A DNA stretch of 64,000 nt, from positions 1,391,533 through 1,455,532 of the forward strand of contig CAYFPL010000001.1 in the NCBI GenBank assembly GCA_964344935.1, given 5' to 3'. The notes under the pieces were generated by a model that was not told the origin of the DNA, did not search any database, and worked only from the letters and a program-made list of their open reading frames with translations. Numbering within the stretch: the first letter of the stretch is position 1; every line of letters begins with the position of its first letter. Below are positions 5,327-43,538 of the stretch, one piece after another. The DNA is from an uncultured Rhodospirillaceae bacterium (lineage in GTDB: Bacteria; Pseudomonadota; Alphaproteobacteria; GCA-2731375). The translations under genes were made by a program, and so were the position numbers.

Positions 5327-6781
5327 CTAGTCAAAGCCCGGCGGCGGCTGGAAACCCTGGATCTGTTCAGAAACCAGGCGGCAGAATTCGATCGCCGTCT
5401 TGTCCTCGCCTTCCGCGGCGACGGCCTGCAGGCCGAGGGGCAGGCCTTCGGGGCTGAAACCGGCCGGTGAGACGGTGGAGGGCAAAAACACCATGTTCGG
5501 GAACCCGGCCCAGAAGAGCTGGGTGGTGGTGGGCTGTTCCTTGCCGTTCACGGTGATGGTGCGGTCGTGACGTTCGCCTTCCTGGTCGTGGGGCCAGGCA
5601 GCAGAGGCGGCGGCGGGGCATAGCAATATGTCCCAGTCCTCAAAAAACGCGGCCCAGGCCCGGCGCATGAAATGGCGTTCATTATCCCAGGCCAGCCATT
5701 CCCGATGCGGCATCAGCACGCCCCGAGCCATCCAGGCAAGATAGCTGTCAGGGTCCACGTTCTGATCCGCTTTAACATCTTCGAAGAAACCCAGTTGGGC
5801 CTCGGGCACCCCTTGTGAAGTGGCGGAGCGCAACAGCGCCACATAGACTTCAAAGGCACGGGCCGTATCCACCGCTGGGCGGGCCGTGTCGCAAACCGTG
5901 GCCTCCGCCTTGGCCAGGGCATCGGCCATATTAGCCAGGCAATCCTGGTAGGGTTGATCCACCTCGGCTACCGGATCGCTCAACATCACAGCTACCTTGA
6001 AATCCTTCAGGGCGGTCTTGCGGGGGCCCGGCAGATCCAATCGCCAGGCCGTGGCCTCGTAACGGCCAGGTCCCGCCATGATGTCCAATGAAAGTGCCAG
6101 ATCCTCGGCACTGCGCGCCATGGGGCCAACCACAGCGATATCTGCGTGGTTGTAGACCTCCGGTAATGTATGGCCGTCACCGGGTACGATGCCGTAGGTA
6201 GGTTTGTGCCCGAACACCCCGCAATAATGAGCCGGGTTGCGGATAGAGGCACCTATGTCGCTGCCCGCCTCTAGCCCCGTCAGGCCGGCCGCCAAGGCCG
6301 CCGCCGAGCCGCCGGAGGAGCCGCCGGGTGTACGCTCTAGGCTCCAGGGGTTGTTGGTGGTGCCATAGATGGCGTTGAAAGACTGCCAGTCGGCCAGATT
6401 CAGGGGCACGTTCGTCTTGCCGAAGATATTGGCGCCCGCCGCCAGCAGGCGTTCCACCACTACCGAGTGGCTGTCCGCGATGTTGTCCTTGAGATCGGGG
6501 ATGCCCCAGGTGTTTGGGCTGCCGATCAAATCATAGGCTTCCTTCACGGTCATGGGCACGCCGTGTAAGGGGCCGGCCTCTTCCCCCCTGGCCAGGGCCT
6601 CGTCAGCCGCCTTGGCCCGCGCGCGGGCCCCTTCTGGGTCCATCCAGATGATGGCGTTGAGGGCGGGGTTGTAACGCTCCACCCGGTCCAGGAAATGTTC
6701 CAGAAGTTCAAGCGCGCCGATCTCCCGCGCCTTGATCTTGGCCGCCAATTCGATGGCGGTAGCGAAATGCAGTTCCGACAT
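5327..6781 (-). CDS. amidase-signature family amidase
   Basis: 484 aa. Amidase-signature stretch GGSSGGSAAALAAGLTGLEAGSDIGASIRNPA with the Ser-cisSer-Lys context. Confidence 0.9.
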   Translation of the reverse strand: MSELHFATAIELAAKIKAREIGALELLEHFLDRVERYNPALNAIIWMDPEGARARAKAADEALARGEEAGPLHGVPMTVKEAYDLIGSPNTWGIPDLKDNIADSHSVVVERLLAAGANIFGKTNVPLNLADWQSFNAIYGTTNNPWSLERTPGGSSGGSAAALAAGLTGLEAGSDIGASIRNPAHYCGVFGHKPTYGIVPGDGHTLPEVYNHADIAVVGPMARSAEDLALSLDIMAGPGRYEATAWRLDLPGPRKTALKDFKVAVMLSDPVAEVDQPYQDCLANMADALAKAEATVCDTARPAVDTARAFEVYVALLRSATSQGVPEAQLGFFEDVKADQNVDPDSYLAWMARGVLMPHREWLAWDNERHFMRRAWAAFFEDWDILLCPAAASAAWPHDQEGERHDRTITVNGKEQPTTTQLFWAGFPNMVFLPSTVSPAGFSPEGLPLGLQAVAAEGEDKTAIEFCRLVSEQIQGFQPPPGFD

Positions 6782-6787
6782 GGCGGT

Positions 6788-7111
6788 CTAGTCCTCGCGC
6801 GCGGCAAATACGTCCTTGGCGATGGTCGCCGCGGTCATGGCGGTGGGCCAGCCGGCATAGAAAGCCATGTGGGTGATCACTTCGATCAATTCTTCCTGTG
6901 TAACGCCGTTATCCAGGGCCCGGCCCAGATGGCCGACCAGTTGCCGGTCCCGGTGCATGGCCACCAAGGCTGCAACGGTAATAAGGCTGCGGTCCCGCTT
7001 GGACAGCCCTTCCCGTTCCCAGACATCGCCGAACAGAACCTCGCGGGTCAGTTCAACCAGCTTCGGCGCGGTCTCCGCCAAGGCGTCCGCGGCGGTAGGT
7101 TTCTGGCTCAT
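6788..7111 (-). CDS. carboxymuconolactone decarboxylase (CMD/AhpD-like) family protein
   Basis: 107 aa with the typical CMD core: LSKRDRSLITVAALVAMHRDRQLVGHLGRALDNGVTQEELIEVITHMAFYAGWP. Six-nt gaps to guaA upstream and to the amidase downstream. Confidence 0.8.
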   Translation of the reverse strand: MSQKPTAADALAETAPKLVELTREVLFGDVWEREGLSKRDRSLITVAALVAMHRDRQLVGHLGRALDNGVTQEELIEVITHMAFYAGWPTAMTAATIAKDVFAARED

Positions 7112-13696: not shown

Positions 13697-14757
13697 GGGT
13701 TCGCGCCACGCTGCGCGGCGGCGCCCGGGTTGTCGTTGCCCCGGACGATGTCGGCGGGCCTATCCCATTTCATCAGCGACAACAGCAGCCCTTCCCGCAC
13801 ACCCCGATCGGCCACGCGCAGACGTTGGCATGGCCAAGTGCGGTGGATCGCCTCCAAGATGGCGCAACCGGCGACAACCAGATCTGCCCGTCCTCGACCG
13901 ATGCAGGGATGGGCCGCCCGTTGCTCCAACCGCATCGCGCGCAGTCGCTCGGCCGCCGCCCGGGCATCGGCAAAGGTCAGCCACAAACCGTCAACCCGTT
14001 GGCGGTCATAACGTTCCAGCCCCAGGTGAACACCGGACAGGGTCGTTACCGTGCCCGACGTGCCGATCATCTGGACGATGCCCTGACGGATCTTCTCGTT
14101 GATGCCGTGGTCTTCTTCGAATTCACGAAGTTCCGTAATGATGCGGCAGACCAGGCCCTCGTATTCCGCCGGGGAGAATTCGCTGCTGCCGTGGCGCTCG
14201 GCGATGCTGACGACGCCATGGGGCAGAGAGGTGGTGGCGAGGGGCTCGAGACCGGTTTCAGCGTCGTGTCCGGTCCAACTCAACTCCGTACTGCCGCCGC
14301 CAATATCGAAGACCAGGGCAAATCGGGCCCCATCCGCCAGCAACGGCCGACAGGCGGCGACGGCCAGCTTAGCTTCTTCCTCGGCCGTGATGGTTTCAAG
14401 ATACAATCCGGCTTCCCGGTTCACCCGTTCGAGGAATTCTTCACAATTGCGGGCTTTTCTGCAGGCGGCGGTGGCGACGCAACGGGCCCGGGTGACCCGG
14501 CGTCGGCGCATCTTGTCGGCGCAGACTTTTAGCGCCGCAACAGTGCGGTCCATGGCGGCATCGGACAAGCGGTGGCTGCCCTCGACACCCTCGCCCAGAC
14601 GCACGATGCGGGAGAAGGCATCGACCACGCGGAAGCCATCCTCTACCGGACGTGCTACCAGCAGCCGGCAATTATTGGTGCCCAGATCTATGGCGGCATA
14701 AGTATGCTGGCCGCCATTGCCAAGCCGCCCCCCGTTCTTTTCGTTCCTTTTCGCCAC
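13693..14757 (-). CDS. ppx: Ppx/GppA-family exopolyphosphatase/phosphohydrolase
   Basis: 354 aa. ASKHA-fold motifs AAIDLGTNNCRLLVA and VFDIGGGSTEL. The short single-module form is typical for alphaproteobacteria. Confidence 0.85.
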   Translation of the reverse strand: MAKRNEKNGGRLGNGGQHTYAAIDLGTNNCRLLVARPVEDGFRVVDAFSRIVRLGEGVEGSHRLSDAAMDRTVAALKVCADKMRRRRVTRARCVATAACRKARNCEEFLERVNREAGLYLETITAEEEAKLAVAACRPLLADGARFALVFDIGGGSTELSWTGHDAETGLEPLATTSLPHGVVSIAERHGSSEFSPAEYEGLVCRIITELREFEEDHGINEKIRQGIVQMIGTSGTVTTLSGVHLGLERYDRQRVDGLWLTFADARAAAERLRAMRLEQRAAHPCIGRGRADLVVAGCAILEAIHRTWPCQRLRVADRGVREGLLLSLMKWDRPADIVRGNDNPGAAAQRGANP

Positions 14758-14851
14758 CGCCCCGTTAGGTCCCGGTTGGAATCATTGTTATTTTGCCACA
14801 CCTTGACCCTTTGGCGCGGTCCTGGCAATAGCGGTTTTGCGATCACCTTGG

Positions 14852-14878
14852 TTGACATCCCGGTGGCTGCTTCATAAT
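14852..14878 (+). promoter_or_regulatory. candidate sigma70-type promoter for tRNA-Gln
   Basis: TTGACA (14852-14857) and CATAAT (14873-14878), ending 19 nt before the tRNA 5' end. The spacer is only 15 nt, which is short, so the call is tentative. Confidence 0.45.
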
Positions 14879-14897
14879 TTGCGCCAAAGACCGCCGT

Positions 14898-14971
14898 TGG
14901 GGACTCGTCTAATGGTAGGACAGCGGACTCTGACTCCGTAAGTCCAGGTTCGAATCCTGGGTCCCCAGCCA
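14898..14971 (+). tRNA. tRNA-Gln (anticodon CUG), CCA encoded
   Basis: Folded by hand. Acceptor TGGGGAC/GTCCCCA, D arm GTCT-AATGGTA-GGAC, anticodon arm GCGGA-CTCTGAC-TCCGT (anticodon CTG), variable loop AAGT, T arm CCAGG-TTCGAAT-CCTGG, discriminator G, then CCA. U1-A72 is typical of tRNA-Gln. Confidence 0.95.
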
Positions 14972-15201
14972 ACCCCATCCATTTTTTCTCGACAACGAAA
15001 CGGGCTACGCTGGATGTTTGCGTCTGAATGCCCACGGCGCCGGTCGAGACGATCTCCATCGATCAAGGATCGCGCGCAGTTGCGCCGAGAATCGCCGCAT
15101 GCCAAGTATGTGACAGAAAGATTGCGCTTCTCGTAGCGAGGTGTTGAACGTCAGATGCATGACGAAACGAGCTACACACATCGCGGCGAGCGGCGCGGTA
15201 T

Positions 15202-15237: not shown

Positions 15238-15618
15238 ATGGCGTTCGAACTGTTTGTGAATGGTACCTTGATGCGGGGATTGGCGCTGCACGAGAATTTG
15301 GAGGGCGCGGAGTTTCTTGGTGAGTTCACCACGAAACCCTGTTACCGCCTCTATTCCATCGACGACATCCATCCCGGCATGTTCGAGGTCGCTGAAGGCG
15401 GCGTGGCGGTGAAGGGCGAGATGTATCGTATGAGCGACGAGGTCTGGCGCCGCGTGGAAGATGGGGAACCGCCGCATCTTTATTGCGGTCCCGTTCACCT
15501 GGACAACGGCGAGACCGTCAATGGTATTCTTTTTCCCCAGGAGATCGCGGAAGCAAATTACAAGGACATCTCTCAATTCGGTGATTGGCGGAAGTACATG
15601 GAGTCCAAAGGCTCCTAA
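15238..15618 (+). CDS. stand-alone GGCT-fold protein resembling the C-terminal domain of allophanate hydrolase
   Basis: 126 aa. FVNGTLMRGLALHENLEGAEFLGEFTTKPCYRLYSIDDIHPGMFEVAEGGVAVKGEMYRMSDEVW...PHLYCGPVHLDNGETVNGILF matches my memory of the AH C-domain / gamma-glutamylcyclotransferase-like pattern (T-x-P-x-YRLY ... PG[ML] ... G-x-V-x-GE[VM][WY]). Needs HMM confirmation. Confidence 0.6.
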   Translation: MAFELFVNGTLMRGLALHENLEGAEFLGEFTTKPCYRLYSIDDIHPGMFEVAEGGVAVKGEMYRMSDEVWRRVEDGEPPHLYCGPVHLDNGETVNGILFPQEIAEANYKDISQFGDWRKYMESKGS

Positions 15619-15653
15619 ACCGCCCTCCCCAATACCGACAGCCGCGAGCGGGC

Positions 15654-16334
15654 ATGATCATGAACAATTCCCACGTCATCGAGGCCGAACCCTATCCCCT
15701 GTCGTTCGACGCCGCCAGCACGGCACTGTTGATCATCGATATGCAAAGGGATTTCCTTGAACCGGGCGGCTTTGGAGACATGTTGGGCAATGACGTTTCC
15801 CTGCTGCGCAGAACCATCGAGCCCTGTGCAAGGGTGCTAGACGCGGCCCGGCGGGCAGGTCTGTCGGTGATCCATACCCGCGAAGGCCACAGGCCCGATC
15901 TCACCGACGCACCGCCTACGAAATTGAGCCGGGGCAATCTGCAGACCGGCATCGGCGATGACGGCCCCATGGGCCGCATTTTAGTCCGCGGAGAGCCGGG
16001 CCACGAAATCATCCCGGAACTTGCTCCCAAGGCGGAAGAGCCCGTCATAGACAAACCGGGCAAGGGGGCCTTTTACGAAACGGATCTGGACCTGATTCTG
16101 AAGAATCAGTCGATTAGGACCATCGTCGTCTGCGGTGTCACGACAGAAGTCTGTGTTCACACCACGGTCCGCGAGGCCAATGACCGGGGCTATGAATGTG
16201 TCGTATTGGCCGACTGCGTTGGCTCATATTTCCCTGAATTCCAACGCATAGGCCTTGAAATGATCAAAGCGCAGGGCGGCATATTCGGCTGGGTTGCAAA
16301 TTCGGAATCGCTCATCGCCGCTTTGGCGTCCTAG
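15654..16334 (+). CDS. isochorismatase-family cysteine hydrolase (amidohydrolase)
   Basis: Start taken at ATG 15654 (MIMNNSHVIEAEPYPL). Family motifs: ALLIIDMQRDFLEPGG (catalytic Asp), a conserved Lys region, and VVCGVTTEVCVHTTVREA (nucleophile Cys). Same fold family as BiuH, RutB, N-carbamoylsarcosine amidase and nicotinamidase. Confidence 0.85.
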   Translation: MIMNNSHVIEAEPYPLSFDAASTALLIIDMQRDFLEPGGFGDMLGNDVSLLRRTIEPCARVLDAARRAGLSVIHTREGHRPDLTDAPPTKLSRGNLQTGIGDDGPMGRILVRGEPGHEIIPELAPKAEEPVIDKPGKGAFYETDLDLILKNQSIRTIVVCGVTTEVCVHTTVREANDRGYECVVLADCVGSYFPEFQRIGLEMIKAQGGIFGWVANSESLIAALAS

Positions 16335-16408: not shown

Positions 16409-17947
16409 ATGGCGGCAAGAACGCAATACTGGGTGGCCGGCGACCTGAACGCATTTTTTGGCCTCGGCACCAACGTCCTCGTAAATTTGCTGGTCCTTAC
16501 GGGCCTTTTGAAATTTGTCATTCAAATTCCCGACGCCATTCTGTTCGGGCATATCCTGCCGGCGGTCGGCCTGATGCTGTTCCTGGGCAATATCTACTAT
16601 GCCTGGATGGCCAAGAAGCTGGCGGATCAAACCGGGCGCGACGATGTCACTGCACTGCCATCGGGGCCCAGTGTCCCGCATATGTTTATCGTCGTGTTCG
16701 TCATCATGTTGCCGATCACGATTCAGACCAAGGATCCCATCAAGGGTTGGGAAGCCGGGTTGGCCTGGGTCTTTATCGAAGGCCTGGTCCTGTTCGCAGG
16801 CGCATTTATCGCACCGACGATCAGGCGGTTGACCCCGCGCGCCGCACTGCTGGGTACTTTGGCCGGGATTTCCATCACCTTCATTTCCCTACGCCCGGCC
16901 ATGGAGATATTCGAAACGCCGATCATCGGCCTGGTCTCCCTGGTCATCATCCTAGGCGCCTGGTTCGGCGGCGTGCGATATCCGGGCAAGCTTCCCGGCG
17001 GCCTGGTGGCGATCGCGGTCGGCACCATACTGGCGTGGCTCAGCTACATCTTCGGCTGGGGTTTCGGCGGTATGGACCCTGCGGCGGTGCAGAATTCCCT
17101 GGGCAACATCGGTTTCTCCGTGCCCCTGCCCGCCTTCGGCCACGTCTTTTCGGGCTTTGAGTTCCTCGCCTTCATCATCGTCACGGCCATTCCCTTTGGC
17201 GTCTATGACTTCATCGAGGCCATGGACAATGTGGAAAGCGCGGCCGCTGCCGGCGATGAATACAGTGTCAAGGAAACACTGATCGCCGAGGGCGGCATCA
17301 GCCTGGTCGGCACCCTGCTGGGCAGCCCCTTCGCCAACGCCGTATACATTGGCCATCCGGGTTGGAAGTCCATTGGCGGCAAAATCGGCTATTCCATCGC
17401 CACCGGCGCCATGGTCCTGATCCTCACCTGGCTGGGCATCGTTTCGCTGTTGCTTGATCTGATCCCAGTGGTGGCGATCATCCCCATCCTGCTCTACATC
17501 GGCGCCCTGATCGGCGCCCAGGCTTTCCAGGCAACACCGGGCAATCATGCCCCGGCGGTTGTCTTTGCCTTCGTTCCCCATCTGGCAGCCTGGGCGAAAA
17601 CGCTGATCGATGGTTCCCTGGGCGCGGCAGGCACCAACGCAGCGGCCGTCGGCCTGGATAAATTGGCGCAGAACGGCGTTCTCTATAAGGGCCTGGAGGC
17701 GTTGGGGGGCGGTGCCATCATCACCGGCCTGATCTTCGGCGGCATCGTGGTCATGCTGATCGACCGTAACCAGGTTGGCGCCGCCGTGTTCTGCCTGATC
17801 GGGGCGGTCCTGGCGTTCTTCGGCTTCATTCATGGCCCGGCAGTGGGCTTTGCCGTCTCGCCGATGATCGCGCTGAGTTATGTGTTCATGGCGGTCATTT
17901 GCGCCGGTTTCTCGCGCATGGAGGTCGAACAGGAAGCGAGCCAATAG
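16409..17947 (+). CDS. NCS2/AzgA-type (AGZA family) nucleobase-like permease
   Basis: 512 aa, polytopic. N-terminal GDLNAFFGLGTNVLVNLLVL...GNIYYAWMAKKLADQTGRDDVTALPSGPSVPHMF resembles the AzgA/xanthine-uracil permease-like family. SD-like GGGGAG lies 9 nt upstream of the ATG. Confidence 0.75.
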   Translation: MAARTQYWVAGDLNAFFGLGTNVLVNLLVLTGLLKFVIQIPDAILFGHILPAVGLMLFLGNIYYAWMAKKLADQTGRDDVTALPSGPSVPHMFIVVFVIMLPITIQTKDPIKGWEAGLAWVFIEGLVLFAGAFIAPTIRRLTPRAALLGTLAGISITFISLRPAMEIFETPIIGLVSLVIILGAWFGGVRYPGKLPGGLVAIAVGTILAWLSYIFGWGFGGMDPAAVQNSLGNIGFSVPLPAFGHVFSGFEFLAFIIVTAIPFGVYDFIEAMDNVESAAAAGDEYSVKETLIAEGGISLVGTLLGSPFANAVYIGHPGWKSIGGKIGYSIATGAMVLILTWLGIVSLLLDLIPVVAIIPILLYIGALIGAQAFQATPGNHAPAVVFAFVPHLAAWAKTLIDGSLGAAGTNAAAVGLDKLAQNGVLYKGLEALGGGAIITGLIFGGIVVMLIDRNQVGAAVFCLIGAVLAFFGFIHGPAVGFAVSPMIALSYVFMAVICAGFSRMEVEQEASQ

Positions 17948-18024: not shown

Positions 18025-18885
18025 ATGACACCACTACCCGCCATCAGCCTTGGAATAAATGCACCGCGCGGTGACTTTGCAGGCATCGTCCACAGTGTCT
18101 TTGCACGGGCGGCCAACCTGCGCCTGGAGGATGGCCGGCTGGCGACTTGCACCAACGGCGACTATTTCGAGATGCCGTTGGGCATCCGCATCGAAACGCC
18201 CCGCGCGTTCGATTTTCAAGCGTTCCTGAGGGAAGGCGAGAGTGCCCATTGCCGTGGCGGTATCCTTCGGTTCAACGGCGGCGGATTGAAAGTCGATCTA
18301 CGCACCGCGCGGGTTTGGAACGGTGGCGTTCATATTGTCTCCCCGCCCCAAAGCCGGCCATTGGATGAATTATGGCATATCGCAGAGAAAGGCATTAATG
18401 GCGATGCCACGTTTCCTTTGGCACCGATGGTCTCCCATCTGGCCAATCTGGGCCGCAAAGGTAACCAGGGAGATATGAAATCCTTGCAAGGCCTGATCGG
18501 TACCGGCCCTGGCCTGACCCCGGCGGGCGACGATATGGTCAACGGCTATCTGGCGGCCGCAAAATCATTGGCGCCGAACGAGAATTGGAGCCGGACGTTG
18601 GCATTGCTGACCTTGCAGCATTTATCGTCAACCAATGACGTTAGCCGGCAGATGCTATCTGACGCTGCTGCCGGGCATTTCATCGAGCCATTGCTGAACA
18701 TGCTCTCCGCGATCTACGGTGCCCGGCCTGTCAATCCAGCTGCAGGGCAACTCATGTCCATCGGGGCGACCTCTGGGCCGGCCATGCTGTTGGGTCTATT
18801 GACTGGAATCATGCGGGTCGAAGACAGCCGGCTGCCCGCGTTCGGCCGACCGGCGGCACCCACCGTGGCCCAGGGCAGGTCATAA
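18025..18885 (+). CDS. DUF2877-family protein (E. coli YlbF-like)
   Basis: 286 aa, directly upstream of fdrA (2-nt gap). Size, position in an fdrA/DUF1116/carbamate kinase cluster and the GTGPGLTPAGDDMVNGYL motif fit the YlbF/DUF2877 family. This assignment comes from memory plus context. Confidence 0.6.
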   Translation: MTPLPAISLGINAPRGDFAGIVHSVFARAANLRLEDGRLATCTNGDYFEMPLGIRIETPRAFDFQAFLREGESAHCRGGILRFNGGGLKVDLRTARVWNGGVHIVSPPQSRPLDELWHIAEKGINGDATFPLAPMVSHLANLGRKGNQGDMKSLQGLIGTGPGLTPAGDDMVNGYLAAAKSLAPNENWSRTLALLTLQHLSSTNDVSRQMLSDAAAGHFIEPLLNMLSAIYGARPVNPAAGQLMSIGATSGPAMLLGLLTGIMRVEDSRLPAFGRPAAPTVAQGRS

Positions 18886-18887
18886 CG

Positions 18888-20444
18888 ATGCCGTTCGCGC
18901 AAAAAATCCTGTCCGATACCTACCGGGATTCCGTCGCCTTGATGCGGCTTTCAGCAACCTTGAGCGAACATCCCGAAATCCGTCAGGCCTCCGCCGTTAT
19001 GGCAACGGAGGCGAACATGCAGTTGCTGTTGGAAGCGGGCCTGTTGCAAGAGCCGGTTGAGGCCGCACCCGGAAATCTGATGATCGCCATTGAGGCAGTC
19101 GACGACAACGCGGTCGCAACAGCGTTCGAACAGGCCGAAGCGCTTTTGAACAGCGGGCCGCAACCGGCGGCCAGTGATGGGAACGAAACCGGCGCACCGC
19201 ATAGTCTTGAAATGGCGCTGGATGATTTCCCGGATGCGGATCTGGCGTTGATATCCTGCCCCGGCGAATATGCCGGCGCGGAGGCCATGAAGGCCCTGCG
19301 CCTGGGTCTGGACGTGATGATTTTCTCCGACAATGTGCCGCTTGACGAAGAAATGGCGCTCAAACGTCTGGCCGGAGAACAGGGCAAGCTGGTCATGGGA
19401 CCCGATTGCGGCACGGCGATCATCAACTGCGTCCCCCTTGGTTTTGCCAATGCTGTCGCGCCGGGTGACATAGGCATCGTTGCCGCATCCGGTACCGGCC
19501 TGCAGCAGGTCGCCTGCCTGATCGACGGCCTCGGCGGCGGTATCTCTCAAGCCATCGGCACGGGCGGCCGGGACTTGCACGCGGAAATTGGCGGCATTTC
19601 CATGCTCAACGGTCTGGATATCCTGACGGATGATGCCGCTACCTCTGTCATTGTCCTCATATCCAAGCCGCCCGCGCTGGAGGTTGCCGCCAAGATCCGG
19701 GCTGAGGCGAAGCGATGCGGTAAGCCAGTGGTGGTCAATTTCCTTGGTGCTGAGGCCGGATTGCACAACGACGACAACCTGTTCGCCGCCGAAACATTGG
19801 AACAGGCAGCCTTCGCGGCCTTCGATCTGTCGCGAGGTGATGATCCTTCAATTCGGAAACTGCAACGGCACCCACTGGATGGCGATGCGATCGACGAACT
19901 GCGATCTAGTCTGGAAAGCAGCCAAAAGTTCGCAAGGTGCCTCTACAGCGGCGGCACTTTCAGTTACGAAGCGATGTTACTCCTCGACAAAGACATCGCC
20001 GCCATTCATTCCCCTTCCCCGCTCGATCCCAAATTCAAACTCAATGATGTCTGGTCCAGCACCGGCAATACGGTCCTTGATCTCGGCGACGATCATTTCA
20101 CCAGGGGACGGCCGCATCCCATGATCGATCAGGGCTTGCGATTGGAACGGCTGCGGCAGGAAGCCAACGACCCGGAGACGGCTGTTATTCTGCTGGATGT
20201 GGTCATCGGCCATGGCGCCCATGACTCACCAGCCGACGAGCTGGCGAAATCGATTGCGGAAGTCCGCGCATCTGCGAAGGAGCGCGGCTATTGCCCCCTA
20301 TTCATCGCCTTTGTATGCGGCACGGATAAAGACCCACAGAACCGCACGAAACAATCGGAAATCCTGCGCCATGCCGGCGTCGTATTGACGGATAGCAATG
20401 CCCAGGCGGCGCGCCTGGTTTGCGACCTGCTATCGGGGCGTTAG
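18888..20444 (+). CDS. fdrA: FdrA-family protein (succinyl-CoA-synthetase-alpha-like fold)
   Basis: 518 aa. N-terminus MPFAQKILSDTYRDSVALMRLS, CoA-ligase-like GPDCGTAIIN and GIVAASGTGLQQV motifs as in E. coli FdrA. Confidence 0.85.
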   Translation: MPFAQKILSDTYRDSVALMRLSATLSEHPEIRQASAVMATEANMQLLLEAGLLQEPVEAAPGNLMIAIEAVDDNAVATAFEQAEALLNSGPQPAASDGNETGAPHSLEMALDDFPDADLALISCPGEYAGAEAMKALRLGLDVMIFSDNVPLDEEMALKRLAGEQGKLVMGPDCGTAIINCVPLGFANAVAPGDIGIVAASGTGLQQVACLIDGLGGGISQAIGTGGRDLHAEIGGISMLNGLDILTDDAATSVIVLISKPPALEVAAKIRAEAKRCGKPVVVNFLGAEAGLHNDDNLFAAETLEQAAFAAFDLSRGDDPSIRKLQRHPLDGDAIDELRSSLESSQKFARCLYSGGTFSYEAMLLLDKDIAAIHSPSPLDPKFKLNDVWSSTGNTVLDLGDDHFTRGRPHPMIDQGLRLERLRQEANDPETAVILLDVVIGHGAHDSPADELAKSIAEVRASAKERGYCPLFIAFVCGTDKDPQNRTKQSEILRHAGVVLTDSNAQAARLVCDLLSGR

Positions 20445-20452
20445 AGGCGGAT

Positions 20453-21865
20453 ATGTACGATAAACCGCCAGGATCCCTAAACGTCATCAATGTGGGTATC
20501 GCCTCCTTCGCCGAGGTGGTTGAAGATGCCGGCGGCAAGGCATCGAATGTTGACTGGCGGCCGCCTGCGGGTGGTGATGCCCAGGCGGCATTGGCGCTCG
20601 CCCGGTTGGTTAATGACCCGGCCGTTGATCAGGCGAACAGAGAAGCGTTTCAAAAATACCTCGACGCCAAGCCGATGTTGCAGGGTATCGGACGGGCCGG
20701 AGATGTCATCGCGGGGATGGGCGAACGCACCATTTTGCATTCCGGCCCGCCCATAGACTGGCGGGATGTTTGTGGCCCCGTCCGCGGCGCCCTCGTCGGC
20801 GCTATCTTGTTCGAGGGCTGGGCCGGTGATGAGGAGGGTGCCCTCAGGCTCCTGCGCGACGGCGAGGTGCAAATCGAACCCTGCCACCATTATGGCGCCG
20901 TGGGCCCGATGGCAGGTGTCACCAGCCCAAGCATGCCGGTGTGGATCGTTTGCAATACGACGCACGGAAACACGGCTTTTGCCAATCTGAACGAAGGCCT
21001 GGGCAAGGTGCTGCGTTTCGGCGCCAACAGCGAAGAGGTGATCGACCGCTTGCGCTGGATGGCGTCCACCCTTCGGGAGGTTCTCTCCGCTGCGCTGGCG
21101 GGCGGCGGCATCGATATCAAGACCATCATGGCCCAAGCTCTTTATATGGGCGATGAGGTGCATAACCGAAACGCCGCCGCGACGGGACTGTTGTTGAAGC
21201 AACTGACACCGCCGGCCCTGCGTTCTGGTCTTCCGGCTGACGATGTAGCCGGGGCGTTGGAATTTATTGCAGGCAACGACCATTTCTTTCTGAACGTCTC
21301 CATGGCGGCATGCAAGGCCATGCTCGACGCGGCCCACGGCATCGCCAACAGCACCATGGTGACCGCCATGGCCCGGAACGGCGTTGAATTCGGTATTCGT
21401 GTCAGCGGCACCGGCGATCAATGGTTCACGACGCCGGCGCCGTTGGTCGATGGGCTCTACTTCCCGTCCTATTCCATGGCCGATGCCGCACCGGATTTGG
21501 GCGACAGTGCGATCACGGAAACCGCCGGATTGGGTGGCTTCGCCATGGCGGCCGCGCCAGCCATTGTTCAATTCGTCGGCGGCACGCCGGCAGACGCCAT
21601 CGCCCGCAGCCGGGAAATGCAGTCGATTGCCATAGGGCGAAACAATGCATTGACCATACCAGCCCTGGATTTCGCCGGCACCGCGGCGGGCATCGATGCC
21701 CGGAAGGTTGTCGACACCAGCATTCTGCCCGTCATCAACACCGGCATCGCCCACAAGGATGCCGGCATTGGCCAGATCGGCGCTGGCATTACCCGTGCAC
21801 CCATGGCCTGTTTTTCGAAAGCGTTGTTGGCGTTGAGTTCGTCGGATACCCGTTCTGCGGATTGA
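20453..21865 (+). CDS. DUF1116-family protein (E. coli YlbE-like)
   Basis: Start chosen at ATG 20453 (MYDKPPGSLNVINVG), 8 nt after the fdrA stop and preceded by GAGGCGG. About 470 aa, at the conserved position between fdrA and carbamate kinase. Confidence 0.65.
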   Translation: MYDKPPGSLNVINVGIASFAEVVEDAGGKASNVDWRPPAGGDAQAALALARLVNDPAVDQANREAFQKYLDAKPMLQGIGRAGDVIAGMGERTILHSGPPIDWRDVCGPVRGALVGAILFEGWAGDEEGALRLLRDGEVQIEPCHHYGAVGPMAGVTSPSMPVWIVCNTTHGNTAFANLNEGLGKVLRFGANSEEVIDRLRWMASTLREVLSAALAGGGIDIKTIMAQALYMGDEVHNRNAAATGLLLKQLTPPALRSGLPADDVAGALEFIAGNDHFFLNVSMAACKAMLDAAHGIANSTMVTAMARNGVEFGIRVSGTGDQWFTTPAPLVDGLYFPSYSMADAAPDLGDSAITETAGLGGFAMAAAPAIVQFVGGTPADAIARSREMQSIAIGRNNALTIPALDFAGTAAGIDARKVVDTSILPVINTGIAHKDAGIGQIGAGITRAPMACFSKALLALSSSDTRSAD

Positions 21866-21879
21866 ACCGGGGCTTGGAG

Positions 21880-22839
21880 ATGACAAGCGGAAAGAAAACA
21901 GCCGTTGTCGCCGTCGGCGGCAATTCCCTGATCGTGGATGAGAACCATCAGGCCATACCGGACCAGTACGAAGCCGCCGTCACGACGGTCAAATGCATCG
22001 TTGATATGATGGAGGACGGGTGGAATATCGTTCTGACCCATGGCAGCGGCCCGCAGGTGGGCTATATCCTGCGACGATCGGAGTTGGCGATCGAAGAAGT
22101 CGCACCCGTGCCCATGGACTATGCCGATGCCGACATACAGGGCGCCGTGGGGTACATGTTCCAGCGTGCCTTTCGCAACGAATTCGTCAAGCGGGGGATC
22201 AAAAAGGACGCCGTCGCCGTGGTCTCCCAGGTGTTGGTTGATCGCGCCGACCCCGCCTTCGGCAACCCTACGAAACCGATCGGGCCGCAGTTGGACGAAG
22301 CGACGGCCAAGGCGCGGGCGGCGGAACTTGGTTGGGTCGTGAAGGACGATGCCGGGCGCGGCTGGCGAAGAGTGGTACCGTCACCGTCGCCTAGAAAAAT
22401 CCTTGAGCTGGCGCAGATAAATCTTCTGGCCGAGGGCGGATACGTGGTCATCGCCTGCGGCGGCGGCGGCATCCCGGTCGTCGAAAATGAAAAGGGTTAT
22501 CTGGTTGGTGTCGAAGCCGTCGTGGACAAGGACCTCGCCTCAAGCCTGCTTGCAAGCGACCTCAAGGCAGATCTTTTTGTTATCACCACCGCAGTGGACC
22601 GGGTCGCCGTCGACTATGGCACGGCGGAAGAGGAATGGCTGGATACCCTTGAACTGGCACGGGCCAAGGAACTTTACCAGGCCGGCCAATTCGATCCTGG
22701 CAGCATGGGCCCGAAAGTTCTCGCCATGATCCAATTTCTCGAACACGGCGGCGCCAAGGGCATTATCACAAGCCCTGAAAACCTGACCAAATCGATCAAG
22801 AATGCTTCGGGTACTATGTTCGTTCGGTCGGCTCCTTGA
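21880..22839 (+). CDS. arcC: carbamate kinase
   Basis: Track ORF is over-extended. True start at ATG 21880 (MTSGKKTAVVAVGGNSLI), 319 aa. Motifs VLTHGSGPQVG, PTKPIGP, VIACGGGGIPVV and VVDKDLASSLLA are canonical carbamate kinase. Confidence 0.92.
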   Translation: MTSGKKTAVVAVGGNSLIVDENHQAIPDQYEAAVTTVKCIVDMMEDGWNIVLTHGSGPQVGYILRRSELAIEEVAPVPMDYADADIQGAVGYMFQRAFRNEFVKRGIKKDAVAVVSQVLVDRADPAFGNPTKPIGPQLDEATAKARAAELGWVVKDDAGRGWRRVVPSPSPRKILELAQINLLAEGGYVVIACGGGGIPVVENEKGYLVGVEAVVDKDLASSLLASDLKADLFVITTAVDRVAVDYGTAEEEWLDTLELARAKELYQAGQFDPGSMGPKVLAMIQFLEHGGAKGIITSPENLTKSIKNASGTMFVRSAP

Positions 22840-39906: not shown

Positions 39907-41121
39907 TTACATGCCCAATTGCGCCTTGGCCAGGATATTGTGCTGGATTTCGTTGGAGCCGGAATAGATCGACACTTTCCGGAAATGCAGATAGTTGGGC
40001 GTGCAGCCGTTGGCGTATTCCGCGCCAACGGGAGGTTCGTTCCAGCCATGCTTAAGGGCCGCAATTTGATAAGGCATGGCGTAGTTGCCAATGGCCTCCA
40101 TCTTTAATTCATAGAGGCGCTGCATGATCTCCGAATTGCGAATCTTAAAGATGTTCGCCTCGGCGCCCAGGGCCTTGCCGCCCAGTTCACCATCGCGGGA
40201 GAACTTGTCGATGGCACGCATGTTGTAGGCTTCCAAGCTGCGCAGTTCCATCTCCACCGCAGCAATCTTGGCACCGAAAGCAGCTTGTTTTGCCAGGGGC
40301 AGGCCGTCGTCGACCTCGTCCTGGGCCGCAATGTCCTTCAACTGCCGCAGAAGGGTCTTGTGCTGCCCCAGGGAACCGCCGGACATACGTTCATGGGCCA
40401 AAAGATACTTGCCGATGGACCAACCCTTGTGAATTTCGCCGACCGTATTCGCCACAGGCACGCGCACATCAGTGTAGTGCACCATGTTGGTCTCGTGCAG
40501 GCCGTCCATGAGGATGATGGGCCGGATCTCTATGCCAGGCGTTTTCAAATCAACCAGAATGAAGGTAATGCCTTCCTGCTTCTTGCCTTCGGAACTTGTC
40601 CGCGCCAGCAGGAAACACCAATCGGCCCAATGGGCCTTGGTGGTCCACGTCTTGGTGCCGTTGATCACCCATTCATCGCCATCGCGCACCGCCGTGGTGC
40701 GTAGTGACGCGAGATCAGAGCCCGAGTCCGGTTCGGAATATCCCTGGCACCAGATTTCGTCCCCCGACAGCATGGGCGGTAGGAACCGTTGCCGTTGTTC
40801 GTCCGTTCCAAAACCAATCAACACCGGGCCGCACATGTTGATGCCGAATACGACGAGCCTGGGCGCGCCAGCCAGACCCAGTTCTTCATCGAAGATGTAC
40901 TTTTGCGTCAGACTCCACCCAGGGCCGCCATATTGCTCGGGCCAATTGGGCGCCACCCAGCCTTTTTCGAAGAGGATCCTGTGCCAGCCGACCACATCTT
41001 CGCGGGTCATCTCGATGCCGTTTTCGACTTTGTATTTCAATTCCGGCGGCGTCGCCGCCGCCAAAAACGCCCGCACCTCGGTCCTAAAATCCGCGTCTTC
41101 CGCGCTGAAGGATAAATCCAT
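39907..41121 (-). CDS. acyl-CoA dehydrogenase
   Basis: 404 aa. MDLSFSAEDADFRTEVRAFL..., WCQGYSEPDSGSDLASL, and C-terminal IYSGSNEIQHNILA (catalytic-base region). Confidence 0.9.
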   Translation of the reverse strand: MDLSFSAEDADFRTEVRAFLAAATPPELKYKVENGIEMTREDVVGWHRILFEKGWVAPNWPEQYGGPGWSLTQKYIFDEELGLAGAPRLVVFGINMCGPVLIGFGTDEQRQRFLPPMLSGDEIWCQGYSEPDSGSDLASLRTTAVRDGDEWVINGTKTWTTKAHWADWCFLLARTSSEGKKQEGITFILVDLKTPGIEIRPIILMDGLHETNMVHYTDVRVPVANTVGEIHKGWSIGKYLLAHERMSGGSLGQHKTLLRQLKDIAAQDEVDDGLPLAKQAAFGAKIAAVEMELRSLEAYNMRAIDKFSRDGELGGKALGAEANIFKIRNSEIMQRLYELKMEAIGNYAMPYQIAALKHGWNEPPVGAEYANGCTPNYLHFRKVSIYSGSNEIQHNILAKAQLGM

Positions 41122-41225
41122 TGCCCTCTCCGCTCACCCAGGAGCTGCCTAGCCTAGAACACAATGACCACCACGCGGAAGGTGGTATATGCTGGACGCT
41201 AGATTCGCACTTGAGGAAATGGAAC

Positions 41226-43538
41226 ATGGCGGATGCTATCCTAGGCCAATCCGTACCGCGCCGGGAGGATGAGCGGTTCCTGACGGGCGCGGCAAAATTT
41301 ACAGCCGATTTCAACGACGCTGGTCAGCTATATGGCGCTGTCCTGCGTTCGCCCTTCGCCCACGCCGATATTACATCCATCAATGTTTCAGCGGCAGCGG
41401 CGGCTGATGGCGTTATCGGAGTCTACACCCACCGCGAACTGGCGGCCGACGGTATCGGCCCCCTGCCCTGCGCCGCCGTCGGCGCCGTACAAACCGTGGA
41501 ACCCATCAATGTGCCGCCGCGTCCCGCGCTGGCGGACGGCCGGGTGCGCCATGTGGGGGACCCGGTGGCATTCGTGGTCGCGGAATCCCAGACAGCGGCG
41601 TTGGATGCCCTGGAGTTGATTGAAGTCGACTATGACGAATTACCCGCCCTGGCCAACGCCCGGGCCGCCTTGGCGGACGGCGCACCGCAGGTTTGGGACA
41701 CAGCGCCAGGAAATTTCGCCTTCCGCTTCGAAAGGGGCGATCAGGCGGCGGCCGAAGCGGCCATCGCGGTGGCGCCCCACGTAGTCGAATTGGATATCGT
41801 CAATAACCGGGTCTCACCCGCGCCCACCGAACCCCGCGCCGCCATCGGCCGTTACGAGGCCGACGACGATCGCCTGCACCTTTTCGTCACCGGCCAGGGT
41901 GTCCACGGCATTCGCGGGCAGTTGGCCAATGCGGTGTTCAAGCTGGCGGAGGACAAGGTGCGGGTCTCGGCACCAGATGTGGGCGGCGGCTTCGGCCTGA
42001 AGAACTTCCTCTATCCCGAATACGTTCTACTGCTATGGGCCGCGCGGAAGTTGGGCCGCCCCATCAAATGGGTGGCAGAGCGCAACGAGGACTTCTTGAG
42101 CAGTATTCAAGGCCGCGACGTGCTCGCAACGGCGCGCCTGGCCTTCGATGATGACGGGCAATTCCTCGGCCTCGCGGTGGAAGTGACTTCGAACATGGGC
42201 GCCTATCTGTCTTCGTTCGGTCCCGGCATTTCGACAAATTCGTTGTCGACGGCGATCAGCGGCATCTATGACATCCCAGCCGTGTTTCTGGGTGTCACAG
42301 GCGCCTTCACCAATACGGTACCCATCGATGCCTATCGCGGCGCCGGCAAGCCCGAGGCCAACTACATTGTCGAACGGCTGATCATGGCGGCGGCGCAAAA
42401 ACTTGGCGTGGACGCGATGGAATTGCGGCTGCAGAACGCCGTTTCTACCTTTCCCCATACCAACGCTCTCGGCATGGTCATCGACACCGGCGATTTCAGG
42501 GGCAATATGGAACAGGCCATGCAACTGGCCGACCGGGGGGATTTCGAGTCCAGGCGCAAGGCGGCAGCCGGCGATGGCCTGCTGCTGGGCCAGGGCCTGG
42601 CCTGTTTCATCGAAACCTCGCGGGGCGCCGATACGGAAGGGGCGGAAGTAAACTTCCGTGACGATGGCAGCGTGGAACTGCGTCTGGGCACGGAGTCCAA
42701 TGGCCAGGGCCACGAGACCGCGTTCAGCCAGATCGCTGCCGCCAAGTTCGGTCTACCCATTGAAAGCTTCCGTTACATCCAGGCAGACACCGCCCAGGTA
42801 CGCGCCGGCAACGGCCATGGCGGGGCCCGCTCCATGCATATGGGCGGCAGCGCCCTGGACGCGGCGATGGAGGCGGCCCTGGCCAAGGGCAGACCTATCG
42901 CGGCGCAAATGCTGCAGGCCGACGAAGCTGCCTTGAGATTTACGGATGGCGCCTATCGGGTCGCCGAGACCGGGCAATCGGTGCCGCTGATGGATGTGGC
43001 TGCGGCGGCGCGGGATCCGAAAATGGCCGGCGGCGAAGGCCTGGACAGCTATGCGCGGCGAGACAATGCGCCCTTTACCTTTCCCAGCGGCTGTCACGTT
43101 GCGGAAGTCGCGATCGACCGCGACACCGGCGTCCTGCGTCTTACCCGATATGTCATGGTGGATGACTATGGCAGCCAGATCAATCCACCCCTGACGGCTG
43201 GTCAGGTGCATGGCGGCGTCGTCCAGGGCATCGGCCAGGCCCTGTTCGAGGAAGTCGCCTATGATCCTGGGTCAGTGCAACTGCTAAGCGGCACCTGGAT
43301 GGATTACACCATGCCGCATGCGGCGCAATTGCCGTCGTTCGAACTGCATTTCCGTGAAACGCCGACCCAGGCCAATCCCTTGGGCGTGAAGGGCTCGGGT
43401 CAGGCCGGCTGCATGGCGGCACCGCAAACCATTATGGCCGCCGTCCTAGACGCCCTCGCCCCCCTGGGCATCACCGACCTCGACATGCCGGCCACCCCGG
43501 AACGACTGTGGCGGGCAATCAGGGATGCATCCGGCTGA
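41226..43538 (+). CDS. molybdopterin-binding large subunit of the xanthine dehydrogenase/CoxL family (form-II-like loop AYRGAGK)
   Basis: Start at ATG 41226 (MADAILGQSVPRREDERFLTG), GAGGAA 7 nt upstream. 770 aa. Active-site loop PIDAYRGAGKPEANY. No small or medium subunit genes are adjacent. Confidence 0.85.
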   Translation: MADAILGQSVPRREDERFLTGAAKFTADFNDAGQLYGAVLRSPFAHADITSINVSAAAAADGVIGVYTHRELAADGIGPLPCAAVGAVQTVEPINVPPRPALADGRVRHVGDPVAFVVAESQTAALDALELIEVDYDELPALANARAALADGAPQVWDTAPGNFAFRFERGDQAAAEAAIAVAPHVVELDIVNNRVSPAPTEPRAAIGRYEADDDRLHLFVTGQGVHGIRGQLANAVFKLAEDKVRVSAPDVGGGFGLKNFLYPEYVLLLWAARKLGRPIKWVAERNEDFLSSIQGRDVLATARLAFDDDGQFLGLAVEVTSNMGAYLSSFGPGISTNSLSTAISGIYDIPAVFLGVTGAFTNTVPIDAYRGAGKPEANYIVERLIMAAAQKLGVDAMELRLQNAVSTFPHTNALGMVIDTGDFRGNMEQAMQLADRGDFESRRKAAAGDGLLLGQGLACFIETSRGADTEGAEVNFRDDGSVELRLGTESNGQGHETAFSQIAAAKFGLPIESFRYIQADTAQVRAGNGHGGARSMHMGGSALDAAMEAALAKGRPIAAQMLQADEAALRFTDGAYRVAETGQSVPLMDVAAAARDPKMAGGEGLDSYARRDNAPFTFPSGCHVAEVAIDRDTGVLRLTRYVMVDDYGSQINPPLTAGQVHGGVVQGIGQALFEEVAYDPGSVQLLSGTWMDYTMPHAAQLPSFELHFRETPTQANPLGVKGSGQAGCMAAPQTIMAAVLDALAPLGITDLDMPATPERLWRAIRDASG

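Follow-up and report, generated by a model that had tools for sequence, protein, structure and literature searches.

We have analyzed a 64,000-nucleotide (nt) stretch of DNA from an uncultured Rhodospirillaceae bacterium (assembly GCA_964344935.1, contig CAYFPL010000001.1, positions 1,391,533 to 1,455,532), referred to here as the window, with the focus on two adjacent genes of its plus strand. The first (15238..15618) encodes a stand-alone protein of 126 amino acids (aa) from the AH_C family, and the second (15654..16334) encodes an isochorismatase-fold cysteine hydrolase that is assigned by its residues to the triuret hydrolase (TrtA) type. The open reading frame (ORF) of the small protein (P0001) begins MAFELFVNGTLMRG. 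The hydrolase can be started at ATG 15654 or 15660, and its gene lies 35 nt past the AH_C gene if ATG 15654 is used. A preliminary description of this DNA, made from the sequence alone, had proposed a 126-aa ORF with characteristic motifs followed 35 nt later by an isochorismatase-family hydrolase. Both genes were confirmed in position, the motifs of the small protein are present, and the triad contexts of the hydrolase were located at D27 (IIDMQRD), K132 (DKPGK), and C165 (TTEVCV).

The two genes are the first members of a seven-gene module and do not constitute a self-contained pair. They are followed on the same strand by genes for a permease with a 12-transmembrane-type architecture (16409..17947), an AllH-like (DUF2877) subunit (18025..18885), an FdrA/AllF-like subunit (18888..20444), an AllG-like (DUF1116) subunit (20453..21865, start ATG 20453), and a carbamate kinase (21880..22839, start ATG 21880). 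The intergenic gaps from the hydrolase to the carbamate kinase are 74, 77, 2, 8, and 14 nt. The AllH-like subunit matches Pfam AllH (PF11392, E 3e-23) and is conserved in synteny. The FdrA-like subunit contains Ligase_CoA and CoA_binding domains and scores 480 bits against the NCBIfam model FdrA (NF004760, cut-off 433). The AllG-like subunit matches Pfam AllG (PF06545) with 320 bits and belongs to a module-specific paralogue group, and the carbamate kinase scores 353.8 bits against NF009007 (cut-off 266). The permease is a conserved member of the module, with identities of 49-90% in related loci. It has no match in Pfam or NCBIfam; the nearest named protein clusters are Xan_ur_permease (score 0.89, a lead only), and it is probably a permease of the AzgA/NCS2 (xanthine-uracil permease-like) kind.

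The hydrolase matches the Isochorismatase family (PF00857) with an E value of 2e-48 and scores 287.5 bits against the biuret hydrolase (BiuH) equivalog NF050097, below its cut-off of 370. The best relative in the PDB is TrtA from Herbaspirillum sp. BH-1 (6XIX, 276 bits, gapless over 210 residues), followed by BiuH from Rhodococcus (267 bits), BiuH from Rhizobium (249 bits), and RutB (104 bits). Six positions have been reported to separate TrtA from BiuH: F35, N41, A134, E160, Y187, and I205 in the former versus Y, Y, S, D, T, and V in the latter (PMC7948467). All six are TrtA-type in the window hydrolase, and 15 of the 15 published active-site and discriminator positions of TrtA (6XIX/6XJE; PMC7948467) are identical; the triad, the V-T cis-peptide site, and the substrate-binding residues E72, K132, and Q202 are the same in both proteins. 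By this residue signature, the window hydrolase is of the TrtA type and not of the BiuH type. The hydrolases of the related loci described below split cleanly between the two signatures. Those at least 60% identical to the window hydrolase all carry the full TrtA signature, and the BiuH signature is found in second copies and in a few lone copies. The setting of the gene differs from that of canonical trtA, which is found with biuH and atzF and, in some cases, trtB. The genome of the window contains neither a BiuH-type gene nor an atzF gene, and the neighbors of the hydrolase gene are instead those for AH_C, the permease, the AllFGH-like proteins, and the carbamate kinase. TrtA converts triuret to 1-carboxybiuret and ammonia and is reported to be ultraspecific for triuret (PMC7948467).

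The 126-aa protein matches the Pfam family AH_C (PF21986) with 112.7 bits (E 1.5e-32, cut-off 27) in an alignment that spans model positions 2-123 of 123; a second, weaker Pfam match is to GGACT (PF06094, 46.3 bits). In NCBIfam, it aligns solely to the last ~125 positions of both allophanate hydrolase models, and with 61-73 bits against cut-offs of 487-511 it does not qualify as a whole allophanate hydrolase (AtzF/DUR1,2; TIGR02713). A phmmer search of the PDB with this protein returned 5C5Z, the E. coli protein c4763 (72 bits), and the C-domain of the allophanate hydrolase from Granulibacter (24 bits). The AlphaFold2 model of the protein (predicted local distance difference test score 93.6) has the GGCT fold. 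Using Foldseek, its closest structure was found to be 5C5Z, with a template modeling (TM) score of 0.91 and a root-mean-square deviation of 1.3 Å, and the next was the C-domain of the allophanate hydrolase/urea amidolyase from K. lactis (4ISS/5I8I; TM 0.88). Generic GGACT/GGCT proteins gave TM scores of 0.57-0.74 (GGACT 0.65, GGCT 0.57). By profile and structure, the protein corresponds to the C-domain of allophanate hydrolase without the rest of that enzyme, and it falls in the orthologue class of c4763. The likeness to this domain that was proposed in the preliminary description is therefore upheld, and the protein does not belong to an unrelated GGCT/AIG2 subgroup.

Across 35 orthologues from several phyla, 29 residues of the AH_C protein are invariant, and the charged or polar residues among them are R37, D43, H45, E61, E77, R118, and Y120. 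Invariant residues common to the free AH_C proteins and the C-domains of AtzF are R37, E61, W117-R118, and Y120, and the window protein itself shares V7, G9, M12, G14, Y36-R37, P46-G47, E61, W117-R118, and Y120 with the allophanate hydrolase C-domains (K. lactis 4ISS, Granulibacter 4GYR). Of the AtzF C-domain motif V.GAH..G, YR, RPG, E, and WR.Y, the free protein retains YR, PG, E61, and WR.Y. The set of 29 invariant residues resembles a site for ligand binding or catalysis more than it does a simple spacer. The two kinds of protein also differ: the window AH_C has no amidase-signature fusion, its identity to the allophanate hydrolase C-domains is just 29-37%, and the free AH_C proteins form a separate, tightly conserved clade with identities of 53-85% across phyla. 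Ever since its first structures were determined, the C-domain of allophanate hydrolase has been the subject of a dispute over whether it is an N-carboxycarbamate decarboxylase or only a piece for dimerization and docking.

Related loci were collected by scanning one genome per species for AH_C orthologues, and the module genes within them were mapped by tblastn with the seven proteins of the window. Other neighbors were obtained by ORF calling and 20 Pfam look-ups and are cited here if confirmed by Pfam, since antisense ORFs were called in some high-GC loci. The scan yielded AH_C orthologues of 53-85% identity at 62 loci, 59 of which have enough flanking sequence to be judged. A hydrolase of the TrtA/BiuH family is located within about 2.5 kb of AH_C in 48 of these 59 loci, either adjacent or one gene (the permease) away; the adjacency expected by chance in a genome of ~5000 genes is well under 1%. 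The whole module, with its gene order permuted, was found in Alphaproteobacteria/Rhodospirillales, Nitrospirota, Spirochaetota, Chloroflexota, Entotheonella, and others.

Natural fusions were sought among longer AH_C-containing proteins and are counted here as protein clusters. AH_C is fused to a TrtA-signature hydrolase (IHL) in 13 clusters, 10 of them in the order AH_C-IHL, among which is protein P0156 from a Cupriavidus isolate, and 3 in the order IHL-AH_C (P0161, P0172, and P0182). Fusion in both orders is strong evidence for functional coupling. Some 20 or more clusters (P0177, P0194, P0197) carry AH_C at the C-terminus of the module permease; they are named AGZA-family permeases by the Joint Genome Institute, and they suggest that the pathway is physically organized. 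Tandem AH_C-AH_C proteins of ~265 aa make up 28 clusters (P0122-P0149). A different isochorismatase subfamily is the fusion partner in two clusters (P0158, P0169), and rare architectures join AH_C to a cupin (ChrR-like; P0150/P0151/P0153), a SnoaL-like domain (P0170/P0190), or a glyoxalase (P0184). One further candidate, P0186, looks like a garbled read-through and was excluded from the fusion counts. From the synteny across phyla and the fusions in both orders, AH_C and the hydrolase are functionally linked and their pairing is not due to chance; a co-occurrence at chance level had been named in the preliminary description as an outcome that would refute its reading.

The distribution of the genes was examined in a sample of 400 genomes of the class, which was searched with the hydrolase, AH_C, and AllG; an AllG was taken to be of the module type at an identity of at least 58%. 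No claim made here draws on genome G240, which is flagged as unpublished. Free AH_C occurs in just three genomes of this sample and is too rare for a genome-level test of its co-occurrence with the hydrolase, so that the evidence for linkage comes from the synteny of AH_C-seeded loci and from the fusions. Module-type AllG was found in eight of the sampled genomes, and all eight contain an AH_C domain, which is free in two and within AtzF in six. The two genomes with free AH_C are that of the window (G000) and G263, where the module is cut by an insertion sequence (IS) element and the hydrolase is missing. The AtzF proteins of the genomes with sister modules are bona fide full-length enzymes (787-796 bits versus a cut-off of 511 for the four that were scored). 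AtzF is encoded beside module genes in five of the six genomes, four of which have the TrtA-type hydrolase and the permease next to it (L068-L072); in G283, whose assembly is fragmented, AllG is not on the same contig as the AtzF-hydrolase pair. Two of the loci (L070 and L071) keep the gene order of the window, namely hydrolase, permease, AllH, FdrA, AllG, and carbamate kinase, with a divergent AtzF gene upstream of the hydrolase, on the side that is occupied by AH_C in the window. The hydrolases beside AtzF carry the full TrtA signature and are 66-74% identical to that of the window. What varies between the modules is a free AH_C versus a whole AtzF.

AtzF is absent from nine of nine genomes with free AH_C (G000, E. 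coli CFT073, G263, G352, and G401-G405). In the genome of the window, the best amidase scores 223 bits, and no AtzF or BiuH-type gene was found. The AtzF-bearing genomes G129, G161, G133, and G283 each contain a single hydrolase of the TrtA/BiuH family; G399 contains a second, weaker copy, and G049 contains none. No TrtB/AtzH-like decarboxylase was found in four of the five AtzF-bearing sister genomes that were searched. With no BiuH in the genome of the window, and with one hydrolase and mostly no TrtB/AtzH-like protein in the sister genomes, carboxybiuret needs another route.

The same module is present in E. coli. The crystallized protein c4763 from strain CFT073, annotated in RefSeq as an "allophanate hydrolase-related protein" (C_RS22505), is the AH_C member of a module with the order cysteine hydrolase, DUF2877, FdrA, DUF1116, carbamate kinase, c4763, cytosine-type permease, and LysR. 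Like the AH_C protein of the window, to which it is 41% identical, c4763 is a stand-alone protein of the same size with the motifs NGTLMRGL, HPGM, and WRxY. It differs in that its gene lies between those for the carbamate kinase and the permease, in that the permease is of the NCS1/cytosine-permease type, and in that a LysR regulator is attached. The CFT073 hydrolase is 69% identical to that of the window and its TrtA signature is complete. The module stretch was found in 1555-1560 of 5426 complete E. coli genomes (about 29%), including that of Nissle 1917, and the module is also found at 127 plasmid places across the complete genomes. CFT073 (NC_004431) contains three DUF1116 paralogues, yahG (428911-430206), ylbE/allG (616975-618303), and the module copy (4530826-4532157).

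Published mentions of the E. coli module region are limited to homology notes (PMC12928451). A 2025 study of metagenome-assembled genomes (MAGs) from nitrifiers found biuH/trtA beside allFGHK and read these as two pathways, with the small protein unmentioned (PMC12625717). Literature searches on the pairing of AH_C with the hydrolase, on N-carboxycarbamate, and on the CFT073 locus tags found no paper that characterizes the pairing, in keeping with the preliminary description. The contributions of the present analysis on the pair are the fusions of AH_C, which join it to the permease and, in either order, to the hydrolase; the occurrence of either free AH_C or AtzF in syntenic modules; and the residue comparison.

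We propose that AH_C and the hydrolase cooperate within a seven-gene module that catabolizes a triuret-type ureide, and that AH_C handles an N-carboxylated intermediate, a reading that we hold to be evenly balanced between right and wrong. By homology, the hydrolase would remove a terminal amide as ammonia and leave an N-carboxylated ureide, which would be 1-carboxybiuret if the substrate is triuret. AH_C would most likely bind and process such an intermediate (1-carboxybiuret, allophanate, or N-carboxycarbamate), either by catalyzing its decarboxylation or by a controlled hand-over to the AllH/FdrA/AllG-like enzyme. The AllFGH oxamic transcarbamylase of E. coli K-12, which together with AllK represents the same three families and carbamate kinase as the operon in the window, converts oxalurate and phosphate to carbamoyl phosphate and oxamate (PMC11326118). 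By analogy with this phosphorolysis, we infer that the AllH/FdrA/AllG-like enzyme of the module would release carbamoyl phosphate, from which the carbamate kinase would form ATP. In the AtzF-bearing modules, the AllFGH-like enzyme is, by the same analogy, the sole candidate for the conversion of carboxybiuret to carbamoyl phosphate and allophanate. The amidase step of AtzF is missing from the free-AH_C modules, where allophanate might be phosphorolyzed again, or AH_C might act on allophanate or another N-carboxy species.

A number of observations weigh against this proposal. Decarboxylation of carboxybiuret by AH_C would yield biuret, a dead end in the genome of the window, which encodes no BiuH-type enzyme; without BiuH, a pathway that passes through biuret cannot proceed. 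Decarboxylation of allophanate would yield urea, yet three genomes with a TrtA/BiuH hydrolase and AH_C show no urease; two have a urea-transporter gene beside AH_C. The free AH_C proteins have NGTL and HPGM at the positions where the AtzF C-domains have GAH and RPGL, differences which suggest that the substrate of AH_C is related, but not identical, to that of AtzF. A truncated AtzF is reportedly fully active, and the part played in catalysis by the C-domain of allophanate hydrolase is itself disputed. Some AH_C orthologues have no hydrolase nearby (L003, L030, L035, and others); one of these follows an aminotransferase gene, and others follow ABC-transporter ATPase genes or lie near an amidase and a carbamate kinase. 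An AtzH-like gene is found elsewhere in the genome of the window, on contig C12, and the crystal structure of c4763 is the sole experimental datum on any member of the module. Finally, TrtA from Herbaspirillum needs no partner for full activity, and the compound that it forms undergoes spontaneous decarboxylation (half-life ~20 min; PMC7948467). The role of a partner would then be acceleration, control, or hand-over rather than a necessity in vitro. This finding on TrtA bears on an outcome that the preliminary description had named as a refutation, namely a hydrolase that is fully active and product-complete by itself. Since the product of TrtA is an N-carboxy compound, the earlier idea that an N-carboxy intermediate is handed to a partner resembling the C-domain stays a live model.

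A bolder form of the proposal, in which the free AH_C is catalytic on N-carboxylated ureides and, with the TrtA-type hydrolase, AllFGH-like phosphorolysis, and the carbamate kinase, makes up a complete energy-conserving pathway for triuret without BiuH or AtzF, is tentative and in our judgment doubtful. Knowledge of what AH_C does by itself would also resolve the debate over the C-domain of allophanate hydrolase. A free, conserved AH_C in place of AtzF in syntenic operons provides a clean system in which to assay the domain without the amidase. Since the module is carried by about 29% of the complete genomes of E. coli, among them that of the laboratory-friendly strain Nissle 1917, and a crystal structure of the AH_C partner is available, the question is directly testable. 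If the downstream steps hold, the module would represent a new phosphorolytic, ATP-yielding route for urea-chain compounds, which arise as oxidation products of uric acid and as fertilizer impurities. The carriers of such a route would include marine Alphaproteobacteria, nitrifiers, Chloroflexota, and E. coli of the gut or urinary tract.

The alternative that survives best is a non-catalytic one, in which AH_C is a docking or dimerization subunit that tethers the hydrolase, the permease, and the carbamoyl-transfer enzymes and channels unstable N-carboxy intermediates past dead-end decarboxylation. The variety of its fusion partners and the tandem AH_C-AH_C proteins are consistent with such a role, as is the fact that biuret would be a dead end in the genome of the window and in E. 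coli, and urea a dead end in the genomes without urease. The C-domain of AtzF has reportedly been proposed to mediate complex formation, and c4763 is a homodimer. However, there is no amidase domain left to dock in the free-AH_C modules, and invariance at 29 residues, with a charged and polar cluster in common with the AtzF C-domains, is more than one would expect of a protein that serves as an adaptor only. Given this strong conservation, binding or catalysis is favored over a scaffold function alone, and we regard docking alone as unlikely.

The model offered in the preliminary description, which we consider less likely again, was that of a split allophanate hydrolase analogue, in which the cysteine hydrolase deamidates allophanate or an oxalurate-like substrate, AH_C decarboxylates the product, and the rest of the operon is separate. 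The fusions of the hydrolase with AH_C do mimic the amidase-AH_C architecture of AtzF, AtzF is absent from the genomes with free AH_C, and loci with a BiuH-type hydrolase only and AH_C occur in genomes without AtzF (L027, L043, and L055). Against this, the hydrolase has the full signature of TrtA, an enzyme reported to be ultraspecific for triuret, and the pair is nearly always found within the larger module. Because TrtA-type hydrolases with the same signature adjoin a complete AtzF in the syntenic sister modules, the cysteine hydrolase is not a stand-in for the amidase-signature domain, as had been supposed. The idea of a non-fused analogue thus holds for the likeness of AH_C to the C-domain, for the coupling of the two proteins, and for a hydrolase of a type that yields an N-carboxy product, but it fails as a self-contained split allophanate hydrolase.

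A third possibility is that two independent pathways are merely located together, one for the hydrolysis of triuret and biuret, perhaps with AH_C, and one for oxalurate that uses AllFGH and the carbamate kinase. The co-location of biuH/trtA with allFGHK in the nitrifier MAGs has been interpreted in this way (PMC12625717), and the AllG, AllH, and FdrA family matches in the window are strong. The co-location is, however, conserved across phyla as a tight operon, with gaps of 2-77 nt in the window, and no allantoin genes flank the module there. The module AllG also belongs to a paralogue group distinct from YlbE/AllG of E. coli: the AllG of the window is 61% identical to the module paralogue of CFT073, 51% to YlbE/AllG, and 50% to YahG. 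It is therefore closer to the CFT073 module paralogue than to AllG of the K-12 transcarbamylase, and neither orthology with AllFGH nor an allantoin/oxalurate context was found. In the AllG tree, the CFT073 module copy falls among the module sequences, and YlbE and YahG are on long branches (1.7-1.9) whose exact placement is unreliable. The genome of the window and the genomes G129, G161, G133, and G283 contain a TrtA-type but no BiuH-type enzyme, and the first of these is also without AtzF, so that a purely hydrolytic route for triuret is incomplete in these genomes. We regard two separate pathways as improbable.

An assignment of the small protein to the ordinary enzymes of the gamma-glutamyl(amine) cyclotransferase type, unrelated to ureide metabolism and in an incidental position, for which the secondary GGACT match, the GGCT fold with its conserved Glu (E61), and public annotations as gamma-glutamylcyclotransferase can be cited, is scarcely credible given that the AH_C profile scores far above GGACT, that the nearest structures are c4763 and the allophanate hydrolase C-domains (TM 0.88-0.91), and that synteny and fusions bind the protein to the hydrolase and the permease.

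The proteins TrtB, AtzH, and HpxZ (NTF2-like) speed or steer the decarboxylation of carboxybiuret or 1,3-dicarboxyurea, which is the kind of job proposed here for AH_C, but their fold (Pfam AtzH-like, PF11533) is unrelated to that of AH_C. The possibility that TrtB is itself an AH_C protein was rejected, as TrtB groups with AtzH and HpxZ. On contig C12 of the genome of the window, the AtzH-like gene (110006-110380, minus strand, 150 bits) abuts an amidase gene (110377-111507, minus strand) whose match contains one TGA. The same contig encodes a urease alpha subunit (40952-42646, minus strand) and an amidase domain (93686-94933, plus strand) inside a 1577-aa open frame. The C12 genes may represent a second ureide route that is similar to AtzE/AtzH or HpxY/HpxZ, and the AtzH-like gene led us to reject the notion that AH_C is the only protein of the genome for handling N-carboxy compounds. 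Production of urea by AH_C for a urease was likewise rejected. Urease was detected in two of the five genomes with BiuH and AH_C, and E. coli CFT073 is not known to produce a urease.

In the window, the module is flanked by tRNA-Gln, ppx, rlmE, and guaB on one side and by a GGDEF-EAL gene on the other. Upstream of AH_C are tRNA-Gln and unrelated minus-strand genes. The tRNA-Gln gene (CTG; 14898-14971, plus strand) is 266 nt upstream of the AH_C start, and it is overlapped by a minus-strand ORF of 123 aa (14688-15059) that has no family match and is probably spurious. A promoter and terminator scan was uninformative, with 1 promoter-like site versus 3.6 expected.

Several of the related loci have features of their own. 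In locus L002, the gene for an IS-type integrase (rve_3; 5984-6943) lies upstream of AH_C, and the module copy, which is without the hydrolase, the permease, and AllH, looks disrupted. A bin assigned to the archaeon Candidatus Nitrosopelagicus includes a 6.7-kb contig that ends in a truncated AH_C orthologue (L057, 6426-6671; 76% identity); this may reflect mis-binning or gene transfer. Two loci from Planctomycetota MAGs (L046, 6468-11425; L059, 8324-13367) encode one hydrolase of the TrtA type and one of the BiuH type, together with AH_C and a channel of the urea-transporter (UT) family; a gene for an OprB-type porin lies to one side. Neither AtzF nor urease was detected in these two genomes. 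In six of six Chloroflexota loci (L047, L042, and L051-L054), a lone divergent DUF1116 (AllG-like) gene is close to AH_C, with no FdrA or carbamate kinase nearby, and these DUF1116 proteins form a long-branch clade. Hydrolases of both types, TrtA and BiuH, are encoded in L047, L051, and L054, whereas L042 and L052 encode one of the TrtA type alone and L053 encodes neither. A BmpA/NupABC-type ABC transporter is also found in L047 and L042, and in L052 a xanthine-dehydrogenase-like Mo enzyme and an Amidohydro_1 protein are encoded directly upstream of AH_C.

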